A stretch of DNA of 32,000 nucleotides from contig OY782392.1 in NCBI GenBank assembly GCA_963677765.1, positions 810,001 through 842,000 of the forward strand, read 5' to 3'. The notes below the pieces were generated by a model. That model was not told the origin of the DNA, searched no databases, and worked only from the letters and a program-made list of their open reading frames with translations. Shown here piece by piece: positions 22,534-23,629 of this stretch. The first letter of the stretch is position 1. Every line of letters begins with the position of its first letter. A program made the position numbers and the translations under genes. The stretch comes from Candidatus Saccharimonadota bacterium (GTDB lineage Bacteria > Patescibacteriota > Gracilibacteria > BD1-5 > UBA6164).

Positions 22534-23088
22534 ATGTTAAAAAAAATCCCCTTATTAATCATAATGATGTTTTGAATTGTTTCTTGTGGTTGAGCTGAAC
22601 AATGAATAGAATCATGATTTAGCGATTTTGAAAATGAATCTTTCAAAATGAAAATTCCAAGTGTGTGGGAAATAATAGAAGACAAAGATACTATTTTACC
22701 AAAAGCACGTGCTTGAGAAATAGAATTAGCTGTTACTTCTACCAATTTTAATACAGGTTTTGCTAATAATATGCTTATATTATCTGATAATTTAGATTCT
22801 TTAACTACAGCTAAAGATTATTCTATGTTAAATAATGTATGAGCTTCTTCTGATTATATCGACTATAAAAAACTAGCTACAAAAAATGTAGTTTTCGCTG
22901 ATTGAACAGAGTCTGTTTTATATGAATTCGAAGCAAAATACAACAAAGATACACCTCTTTTAAAATTTATACAAACTGCTAATATTTGTAACACAAATAA
23001 AGCTTACTTTATAACAGTTGCTTTGAATACTAATGTAGAAGATATAACTAGATACGAAGATTTTATAACAAGTTTTGAGTGTAAATAA
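22534..23088 (+). CDS. hypothetical lipoprotein
   Basis: 184 aa. Signal plus lipobox LLIIMMFGIVSCG. Soluble alpha/beta-looking remainder. No family recognised. Confidence 0.65.
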
Positions 23089-23094
23089 TAAAAA

Positions 23095-23127
23095 ATGAAA
23101 ATTTCTTTTGAAATTTTCATTTTTTTA
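23095..23127 (+). terminator. intrinsic terminator
   Basis: 10-bp perfect stem atgaaaattt/aaattttcat, 6-nt loop, T-run. Confidence 0.7.
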
Positions 23128-23153
23128 TTATAATCAGCAAGCAACAATTTTTT

Positions 23154-23182
23154 ATATTATATATGGTGCCATGGCAGAGTGG
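23154..23182 (+). repeat. 29-bp exact copy of the tRNA-Cys upstream 11 nt plus tRNA positions 1-18
   Basis: ATATTATATATGGTGCCATGGCAGAGTGG is identical at 23154-23182 and 23354-23382. Confidence 0.9.
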
Positions 23183-23316
23183 CGATTAGGTAAGTATTAA
23201 TAGATGTAAAACGACGAATAGGAGTTTTAAAATCATTAATAGTCCTAGTGAGTGCGAAAGAGTCTGTAATGAAATGGAAGCGAATGAAGCGGACATCAGA
23301 GGTCTGAGCTCTGCAT
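23165..23316 (+). other. tRNA-Cys-derived, GC-enriched ~150-nt element (candidate structured RNA or decayed/disrupted tRNA copy); not a functional tRNA
   Basis: Starts with tRNA-Cys nt 1-18 and then diverges. I count 63 G+C in its first 150 nt, clearly above flanking spacers. Long-range pairing GCAGAG (23174-23179) with CTCTGC (23309-23314). Local stems TAGGA/TCCTA (23219-23223 / 23243-23247) and CGGAC/GTCTG with a 7-nt loop AUCAGAG (23290-23306). C-GAAA-G tetraloop at 23255-23260. No T-arm or 3' acceptor. Confidence 0.4.
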
Positions 23317-23353
23317 TAAACTAACGTTTCAAAAAAATAAATTGTTGATATAA

Positions 23354-23382
23354 ATATTATATATGGTGCCATGGCAGAGTGG
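23354..23382 (+). repeat. second copy of the 29-bp repeat (genuine tRNA-Cys 5' end and upstream 11 nt)
   Basis: Identical to 23154-23182. Confidence 0.9.
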
Positions 23383-23438
23383 TCATGCAGAGGTCTGCAA
23401 CACCTTGTACAGCGGTTCAATTCCGCTTGGCACCTCCA
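23365..23438 (+). tRNA. tRNA-Cys (anticodon GCA), CCA encoded
   Basis: Manual cloverleaf: acceptor GGTGCCA/TGGCACC; D-arm GCAG..TGC; anticodon stem GAGGT/ACCTT with loop CTGCAAC; T-arm AGCGG-TTCAATT-CCGCT; discriminator T then CCA. Confidence 0.9.
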
Positions 23439-23440
23439 TA
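23427..23440 (+). repeat. attL-like direct repeat = 3' end of tRNA-Cys (TTGGCACCTCCATA)
   Basis: Exact 14-mer repeated at 30847-30860. Similarity continues imperfectly (ACAAAAC vs TCAAAAAC). Confidence 0.85.
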
Positions 23441-23629
23441 ACAAAACATTCGTTGAGACTTTTTACCCATCTAGATTTTAGGATAGCTAAAGGAAAAAAC
23501 GAATAATATAATGAATTTAAAAACAAAAAAAGTACGAGTTAAAACTTAGTTTTGCTTGTGCTTTTTTTATTGTATGATTGATTAAAATTTAATATAAATT
23601 TAATATTTTACTGAATATAAAGGGAAAAA

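Follow-up and report, generated by a model that had tools for sequence, protein, structure and literature searches.

A small folded element without open reading frames, joined to a partial tRNA-Cys copy, belongs to a tRNA-linked family of Gracilibacteria and Peribacteria

What lies between a partial copy of a tRNA gene and the intact gene downstream of it? This question was raised by the only tRNA locus in a 32,000-nucleotide (nt) stretch, hereafter the window, of contig OY782392.1 (positions 810,001 to 842,000) from a Candidatus Saccharimonadota bacterium. The genome of this bacterium (G000) is a single contig of 1.05 Mb with 23.2% G+C, in which TGA is read as glycine. An exact 29-nt direct repeat (23154-23182 = 23354-23382, spacing 200) consists of 11 nt of upstream sequence and nucleotides 1-18 of tRNA-Cys(GCA), whose intact gene at 23365-23438 is the sole tRNA in the window (ARAGORN; Rfam 59.9 bits). 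The element that follows the first repeat copy is a member of a multi-copy, multi-tRNA family, which goes beyond what the window sequence alone shows. The family is conserved, folded, strand-specific and devoid of open reading frames (ORFs); its members are fused to tRNA ends, are multi-copy, patchily distributed and turning over, and most copies carry arms complementary to their target. We tentatively read the window element as a copy of an undescribed ORF-less structured family (~90-130 nt), intron-like or mobile, that resides beside tRNA genes of Gracilibacteria, Peribacteria and relatives and is always joined to a copied tRNA end, a reading we hold to be possible rather than probable.

The first copy departs from tRNA-Cys after nucleotide 18 and continues with ~112 nt of different sequence, after which tRNA similarity returns and then is lost again. 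The returning part contains a second tRNA-derived match of 10 nt (23297-23306, identical to 23388-23397, tRNA nucleotides 24-33), and 23294-23306 agrees with tRNA nucleotides 20-33 except for one missing base. A first-pass annotation of the window had already pointed to the 29-bp exact repeat 200 bp upstream of the gene (11 nt plus tRNA nucleotides 1-18) and to the regained similarity at 23294-23306; a repeat search confirmed the former, and the 10-nt exact match with its missing base bears out the latter. Its count of ~42% G+C past the repeat also held, as we obtained 41.4% for 23165-23316, compared with 35.7% for the core at 23183-23294 and 21.7% for the window. Neither ARAGORN nor the Rfam model called a tRNA in copy 1 (23165-23316), even at E ≤ 10; the T-arm is absent, as had been noted, and copy 1 does not qualify as a member of RF00005, the cloverleaf with a T-arm and a 3′ acceptor strand. 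No credible gene was found in 23154-23382 among ORFs of at least 60 amino acids (aa). The sole ORF touching this interval (23245-23526, minus strand, 93 aa, TTG start) crosses the intact tRNA-Cys and was rejected as a minus-strand gene, and a minus-strand promoter-like match was at chance level. The parts of the locus, in which the element is of the type that we term X, are as follows.

23154-23182, plus strand: repeat copy 1, in which 23165-23182 is the captured 5′ fragment of tRNA-Cys (nucleotides 1-18), ending after the canonical G18 G19 of the D-loop
23167-23184, plus strand: P0 hairpin, tRNA nucleotides 3-8 paired with 15-18 and the first two insert bases (RNAalifold on alignments A2 and A7)
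23183-23296, plus strand: core of the X-type element, made of a linker, a long hairpin and a purine-rich tail (covariance model R3, 142.6 bits)
23189-23245, plus strand: long hairpin of 57 nt (consensus helices 2 and 3), with 20 pairs, 12 of them changed on both sides across five sequences
23213-23223, plus strand: invariant 11-nt apical motif GAYGAAUARGA, here the C...G variant, present in all family members
23250-23296, plus strand: purine-rich tail (73%), conserved in sequence and unpaired in the consensus (alignment A7; pattern scan of metagenome contigs)
23297-23306, plus strand: what is left of tRNA-Cys nucleotides 24-33 (with CAT included, the start moves to 23294), a 10-nt exact repeat that forms the 3′ flank of the insertion in the pseudo-copy
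23307-23353, plus strand: A/T-rich spacer that separates the pseudo-copy from the intact gene (G+C 16% at 23317-23353)
23354-23438, plus strand: repeat copy 2 (23354-23382) and intact tRNA-Cys(GCA) (23365-23438) (ARAGORN, Rfam)

Homologues of this element were found in other genomes that use translation table 25, and their alignment carried the evidence for a fold. In the X-type consensus (A7, five sequences), 12 of 24 pairs were changed on both sides, as opposed to 4.2 ± 1.5 in shuffled alignments; 0 of 500 shuffles reached 12, and slid alignments gave 0-3. The homology and covariation check that the first-pass annotation had proposed for table-25 genomes thus came out in favor of a conserved structure, but not of the structure it had drawn. 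The pairing of the ends (GCAGAG/CUCUGC), the local 3′ stems and the anticodon-arm-like hairpin were not conserved in the homologues, and in the consensus the 3′ 45 nt are 73% purine and unpaired; in place of a stem fold with a GAAA tetraloop, the conserved fold comprises P0, the 57-nt hairpin with its invariant tip and the single-stranded purine-rich tail. The P0 pairing survives in locus L058, where two C-to-U changes turned its pairs into G-U pairs, and in the copies of L064 and G016, which are linked to tRNA-Val, a hairpin related to P0 is found at this position. The last 22 nt of the tail are identical or one base off in L058, L079 and L080. In the tip, positions 3 and 9 switch jointly, being either U/A or C/G. 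The tip can be modeled as tandem G-A pairs with a covarying Y-R pair and a GAAUA loop, and a K-loop consensus would also fit: like a kink-turn or K-loop, the 11-nt tip has in its sequence a stem that closes it, a bulge of three bases, and G-A and A-G in tandem, whereas the Watson-Crick covariation of positions 3 and 9 better fits a continuous helix with tandem G-A and a GAAUA pentaloop. No match to the L7Ae family (PF01248) was found in G000. The window core was single-copy in its own genome by BLAST. A mirror-image arm for the X-type was considered and discarded; it amounted to a 6-nt complement in the window alone and was not conserved.

At least three other lineages have the same ~110-nt core behind nucleotide 18 of an incomplete tRNA-Cys copy. 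The cores are 72-78% identical (L011, L058, L064), versus 85-92% for the tRNAs themselves, and the flanking intergenic DNA is not alignable across genera. A copy of the host's own tRNA-Cys 5′ end together with a related insert was found in G018 (L011/L039), in the G395 lineage (L058, L079, L080, L082), in L081, a metagenome contig of a sister strain of the window organism, and in G012 (L023). The last is a short form in which the tRNA copy stops after nucleotide 14, the other cases joining after nucleotide 18, and its version of the tip has a stem in place of the loop. The duplicated part upstream of the tRNA measures ~80 nt in G018 and 11 nt in the window and is missing from L058, in which the 5′ tRNA fragment has diverged at 3 of 18 positions and a 3′ remnant of tRNA-Cys nucleotides 21-27 is analogous to that of the window. 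With model R3, the X-type turned up in 6 of 151 genomes of the order (for genus g5, the figure was 1 of 11), and model R1 found it in 2 of 41 genomes; the congeners G002 and G003 do not have it upstream of tRNA-Cys. X-type cores with arms occur in the downstream layout in family f2 (L105, L106), and others lie beside tRNA-Val (L064, G016); in L064, a diverged 5′ hairpin resembling tRNA-Cys stands together with a 25-nt 3′ fragment that matches tRNA-Val perfectly. Two matches, an R1 match in G016:C17 and the L083 match, fell in coding sequence and were set aside as chance. L081 shares the element and tRNA-Cys with the window and has different sequence immediately 3′ of the tRNA (window 23439 onward, L081:1337 onward), which is consistent with the 7.4-kb island 3′ of tRNA-Cys in the window being a later insertion, separate from the element.

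Elements of a second type, Y, lie downstream of tRNAs. Mirror-image cases of the window arrangement, behind tRNA-Met (L033) and tRNA(UCA) (L034), were reached via partial R1 matches, and a 19-nt hairpin scan of one genome per species returned 28 loci, compared with ~4 expected by chance by our estimate. The tRNA-linked hairpin loci belong to Gracilibacteria and Peribacteria, and other hairpin loci include Omnitrophota; a collection of viral contigs had 0 matches to the hairpin 19-mer. The Y-type order is an intact tRNA, a spacer of 9-90 nt, an arm, three hairpins with purine-rich joiners and, abutting them, a tRNA copy that begins at position 56/57 and runs to CCA. Across tRNA positions 54-62, which cover the T-loop and the start of the 3′ T-stem strand, the arm matches the reverse complement, most copies having 0 mismatches; this holds for at least 12 tRNA species. 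The arm also pairs with the start of the copied tRNA tract. In the four-helix fold of nine Y-type sequences, 15 of 25 pairs covary and 96% of cells are paired (0 of 500 shuffles), and the unpaired joiners show strong conservation from Peribacteria to Gracilibacteria. Every tRNA-linked copy that was examined shares the strand of its tRNA and, when fresh, is 9-90 nt away from it. G000 has three family members in total, the window element and two Y-type elements outside the window, at loci L065 and L066:

208855-208939, plus strand: Y-type element at tRNA-Leu(CAA) of G000 (locus C1:208855-209200)
443268-443344, minus strand: Y-type element at tRNA-Met of G000 (locus C1:443060-443344)

Besides the arm and the duplicated tRNA 3′ end, each of the two repeats the 58-60-nt trailer almost unchanged, terminator included. 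A complete Peribacteria genome of 1.36 Mb holds at least 19 copies at tRNAs of at least 12 amino-acid specificities, and another genome holds 8; the commonest Y-type was found in 3 of the 151 genomes of the class sample, all of the window's family. One core subtype is present at tRNA-Leu(CAA) in G000, in G003 and in the Peribacteria genome. In another subtype, Y2 (L066:214-359, minus strand; G414 copies behind tRNA-Cys, tRNA-Lys(TTT) and tRNA-Leu), the first hairpin is tipped by a 4-bp stem and the loop UGGUUAG, much like a tRNA D-arm and its GG. At tRNA-Cys of Peribacteria the element is of the T-loop side, and that of the window's family is of the D-loop side. Furthermore, three loci of Gracilibacteria/Altimarinus (L042:5745-6010, L051, L054) contain a Y-type core inside a conserved non-coding stretch of ~270 nt with no tRNA nearby; the L042-type arm pairs with adjacent upstream sequence, not with a tRNA copy, and the stretch has no Rfam match. 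In Ignavibacteriales MAG185, the hairpin was found on six contigs (L037, L041, L046, L049, L056, L062), in most cases at the end of the contig; a second hairpin, carrying the C/G tip variant, is present in L041, and the Ignavibacteriales loci appear to be a multi-copy element.

The copies differ in age. Among the 19 in the Peribacteria genome, 10 have a tRNA tail identical at 20/20 positions and the others are decayed, and in both tandem pairs the fresh copy is the one proximal to the tRNA. The copied tract always starts at tRNA position 56/57. It ends exactly at CCA for Glu and Met in L052, 9-17 nt past CCA in L044, L045 and L047, after the terminator T-run for Leu and Met in G000 and in L048, and inside the 5′ part of the following element in L063 and at G000-Leu; plausibly, these ends are the natural 3′ ends of tRNA transcripts. 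Only a remnant, the first 16 nt of the element, is left at tRNA-Met of G003, and a solo 9-nt arm with one mismatch and no body lies 10 nt past tRNA-Arg(CCT) in G000 (C1:519084-519110, plus strand), which looks like a remnant or a landing site. Fresh and decayed copies, remnants and empty sites form a birth-and-death pattern. Elsewhere in G000, a tRNA-Val(TAC)/tRNA-Arg(TCT) pair occurs twice on the same strand, 5.6 kb apart (426222-426430 and 431858-432066), which indicates a recent segmental duplication.

Whether the window element is transcribed was approached through its promoter setting, for which two further features are needed.

23090-23125, plus strand: terminator-like A/T hairpin after the upstream gene (22534-23088), a perfect 16-nt inverted repeat at the start of the tRNA-Cys transcription unit
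23129-23134, plus strand: TATAAT, the putative -10 box of the ancestral tRNA-Cys promoter, now upstream of the pseudo-copy and the element

The box, as (T)TATAAT, is found 18-35 nt upstream of tRNA-Cys at nearly all of the loci of 19 relatives, element-free congeners included. G002 and G003 keep the same gene, the hairpin upstream of tRNA-Cys and the box, and their tRNA-Cys begins 18-32 nt past the box with no element between. A promoter and terminator scan of the stretch from the element to the intact tRNA-Cys of the window detected neither a terminator nor a good promoter. Because the conserved TATAAT stands upstream of copy 1 and no terminator intervenes before the tRNA, the window element is, judging from these signals, most likely transcribed within a tRNA-Cys leader of ~230 nt. 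RNase P processes the 5′ ends of tRNAs, and its cut at the 5′ end of tRNA-Cys is predicted to free the element. The first-pass annotation had proposed a structured functional RNA; a conserved structured element with table-25 homologues and 12 covarying pairs against 4.2 in shuffles supports that part of the proposal, but a free-standing small RNA gene with its own duplicated promoter is not supported, the TATAAT lying upstream of the pseudo-copy.

The folding strand is most likely the tRNA-sense strand, acting as RNA. We infer this because the elements are co-oriented and probably co-transcribed with tRNAs, because G-U pairs favor the tRNA-sense strand in both the X- and the Y-type alignments (15 cells versus 4 A-C cells), because many loops are of the GNRA type, and because the copied tracts end at RNA 3′ ends and the junctions fall right after G19 and C56. 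These two residues are the partners of the elbow pair of tRNA. In the window, the X-type is joined on its 5′ side to tRNA-Cys nucleotides 1-18 and on its 3′ side to 20/24-33, that is, within the D-loop of the partial duplicate. An intron-like element would arrive at such products in a few steps: a guide arm would pair across the target loop of a tRNA or pre-tRNA, an element end would be joined to the tRNA at an elbow loop, after G19 or after C56, and the element-tRNA chimera would return to DNA as a copy adjacent to the tRNA gene. At no point would this process interrupt the intact gene, and new copies would lie next to the tRNA while old ones decay. The unit of element plus tRNA 57-76 would be the product expected of the first step of reverse splicing into a tRNA. 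It is this unit, together with an arm ordered like the guide of a group I intron, that made us favor an intron-like, self-joining element. Group I introns of tRNAs (e.g., in the anticodon loop of tRNA-Leu or tRNA-Ile) are likewise RNA elements in tRNA loops, and the 5′ part of the Y-type arm pairs with the downstream exon (57-62) and its 3′ GAA with the last bases of the upstream exon, UUC, in the order of an internal guide. Those introns, however, are at least 200 nt long, with a P3-P9 core and a terminal G, whereas the element has 90-130 nt and three hairpins, shows neither feature and has no Rfam match; its insertions are in D- and T-loops instead of the anticodon loop, it was never found to interrupt the sole copy of a tRNA, and its X-type copies at tRNA-Cys show no consistent arm.

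Several observations weigh against an intron-like origin. Its weakest link is the RNA-to-DNA step, for which there is no recognizable reverse transcriptase: RVT_1 was not found in G000, G018, G414 or G417, including the complete Peribacteria genome with 10 fresh copies, and this absence ruled out a retroelement with its own reverse transcriptase. The core is far below any group I intron in size, no conserved G precedes the junction, and no ribozyme or intron family matched, even at E ≤ 10. The X-type copies at tRNA-Cys have no clear guide arm, and the left limit of the window repeat (-11) does not coincide with any predicted transcription start. The covariation alignments comprise five (X-type) and nine (Y-type) sequences, some of them close relatives, and the covariation of the stems is equally compatible with a folded single-stranded DNA substrate.

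That last point leads to the main rival, a single-stranded DNA cassette moved by a recombinase. Here, the fold would be a recombination site comparable to attC or to an IS200/IS605 end, acted on by a trans-acting recombinase or HUH transposase, with the arm and the start of the tRNA copy as inverse core and core; we give this a minor yet real chance. It would require no reverse transcriptase, in agreement with the absence of RVT_1, and the tandem arrays with the freshest unit beside the tRNA resemble integron cassette arrays, in which, likewise, one strand folds, inverse core and core pair at the boundary and the newest unit sits at the entry site. The arm does pair with sequence at the unit boundary, but the elements have no IntI-type context, their entry site is a tRNA loop, and they carry a tRNA fragment instead of a gene. 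With IS200/IS605 elements and palindrome-associated transposable elements (PATEs) they share small size, lack of ORFs, abundance of hairpins, strand specificity and a guide next to a hairpin that pairs with the cleavage or target site. They differ in having no fixed 4-5-nt target 5′ of the left end, where flanks vary, in duplicating part of the target, in an arm of 9-11 nt rather than 4, and in that several host genomes are without a Y1 transposase. Among 401 genomes of the class, 164 encode such a transposase. G414 and G417 have one each, and the one in the Peribacteria genome with 19 copies is of IS200 type; none was found in G000, G395, G415 or G437, all of which have elements. In Sphaerochaetaceae/Pleomorphochaeta (L038, L040, L053, L055, L059), the invariant hairpin is the extreme left end of an IS200-type element of ~770 bp that inserts just past terminator-like hairpins, and L057 is a transposase-less derivative of left and right end, ~190 nt past a tRNA. 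At 38 IS200-type loci of the window's class, on the other hand, the invariant hairpin was not found and ordinary IS200 hairpins stood in its place, and the ends of the IS200-type copy in the 19-copy genome are also ordinary hairpins without the motif; an IS200/IS605 derivative was therefore rejected. For a DNA cassette, moreover, tract ends exactly at CCA or at a T-run have no obvious meaning, the GNRA-type loops and sense-strand G-U pairs speak for RNA, and a unit that replaces the 3′ end of a tRNA would be unable to move between different tRNAs. A tRNA-linked RNA useful to the host, inherited vertically and kept in step with its tRNA by gene conversion, is in our view unlikely; it might act in cis as a leader or trailer in tRNA folding or processing, or as a ribozyme that exchanges damaged ends. 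The joiners conserved between Peribacteria and Gracilibacteria, the constant co-orientation and adjacency to a tRNA, the shared core subtype at tRNA-Leu(CAA), the P0 pairing maintained in L058 and an arm that could compete with the T-arm of the intact tRNA would all suit such a role. Yet the distribution is very patchy even inside genera, only a subset of tRNAs bears an element, close relatives are without one at the same tRNA, and about half of the copies in one genome are visibly decaying. Such a purely host-serving RNA fits decay and patchiness less well.

Two further explanations fare worse. According to one, the repeats are attL and attR of an integrase-borne island whose body was deleted, as in cis-mobilizable elements (CIMEs). 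Direct repeats of tRNA ends around foreign DNA beside an intact tRNA gene are the usual footprint of islands, and tRNA-Cys is an integration hot spot here, with the 7.4-kb island at its 3′ end that the sister strain L081 does not have. But L081 does have the element, the unit is ~200 bp with a conserved folded body, and the 200 nt contain neither an integrase fragment nor an ORF; the repeat is of the 5′ end of the tRNA, while integrase-borne islands duplicate the 3′ end; in four lineages the 110-nt core follows one and the same nucleotide and shows compensatory changes; and 19 copies at 19 tRNAs of one genome cannot all be deleted islands with the same fold. This explanation is highly improbable, close to refuted. 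The scar of a second, classical integrase event that the first-pass annotation had offered finds no integrase-type footprint, and its remark that a 5′-side duplication is not the usual one was well taken, the duplicated part being the tRNA 5′ end with no integrase. The other explanation, a neutral, functionless tRNA-Cys duplicate that received a chance insertion and is decaying, accords with a pseudo-copy that has nothing past nucleotide 33 and with flanks beyond the repeat that are unrelated to the tRNA locus. Of the annotation's similar proposal of a copy disrupted in the D-loop and then decayed, the interruption after nucleotide 18 and the resumption at 20-24 are real, but the insert is not random decay: its core is 72-78% conserved across genera in genomes of 20-25% G+C, it covaries and it belongs to a large family. 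The neutral duplicate is effectively refuted. Core conservation, covariation and an L081 element without an island essentially exclude both neutral decay and a deleted integrase island. The family shares single features with group I introns, IS200/IS605 elements, tRNA islands and integron cassettes and fails the defining tests of each.

No catalogued RNA family accounted for the elements. At gathering score, Rfam 15 returned only tRNA and rRNA in the window and 18 related loci, and scans of X-, Y- and L042-type elements down to E ≤ 10 gave chance-level matches only. The Rfam and tRNA scans that the first-pass annotation had recommended thus left no known family, and copy 1 not a tRNA. A literature search found no description of such tRNA-linked elements. 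RNase P RNA was dismissed as an identity, as it was found elsewhere (G000:1031038-1031446), and so was a divergent signal recognition particle (SRP) RNA, as the element is present in few genomes (2 of 41; 6 of 151), occurs in multiple copies beside tRNAs and drew no match from RF00169. RF00169 at E ≤ 1 found nothing in G000 or in 41 genomes of the order, while control genomes matched; in this order, SRP RNA has either diverged strongly or is absent.

A further possibility, which we think quite unlikely, is that the family consists of small ribozymes, or of RNAs that behave like ribozymes with the help of a host enzyme. With their guide arm they would act on the elbow loops of folded or unfolding tRNAs and swap tRNA ends, and the encoded unit, either element plus tRNA 57-76 or tRNA 1-18 plus element, would be a half-spliced intermediate that could supply a damaged tRNA with a new end or cut its cognate tRNA. 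If so, they would constitute a system of tRNA repair or tRNA targeting at the RNA level that copies itself into DNA, and an exchange of tRNA ends would define a new ribozyme class, or a new category.

If the intron-like or mobile reading is right, tRNA genes of candidate phyla would harbor an uncatalogued class of tiny structured elements that find their target by pairing with the T-loop, or use a D-loop site, and that capture tRNA ends. They would be a new selfish or intron-like RNA associated with tRNAs, one that accounts for odd partial tRNA duplications, and annotation pipelines would gain a model for masking them. The ends of the copied tracts, at CCA and at the terminator, would offer a handle on RNA events that are written into bacterial DNA without a recognizable reverse transcriptase.

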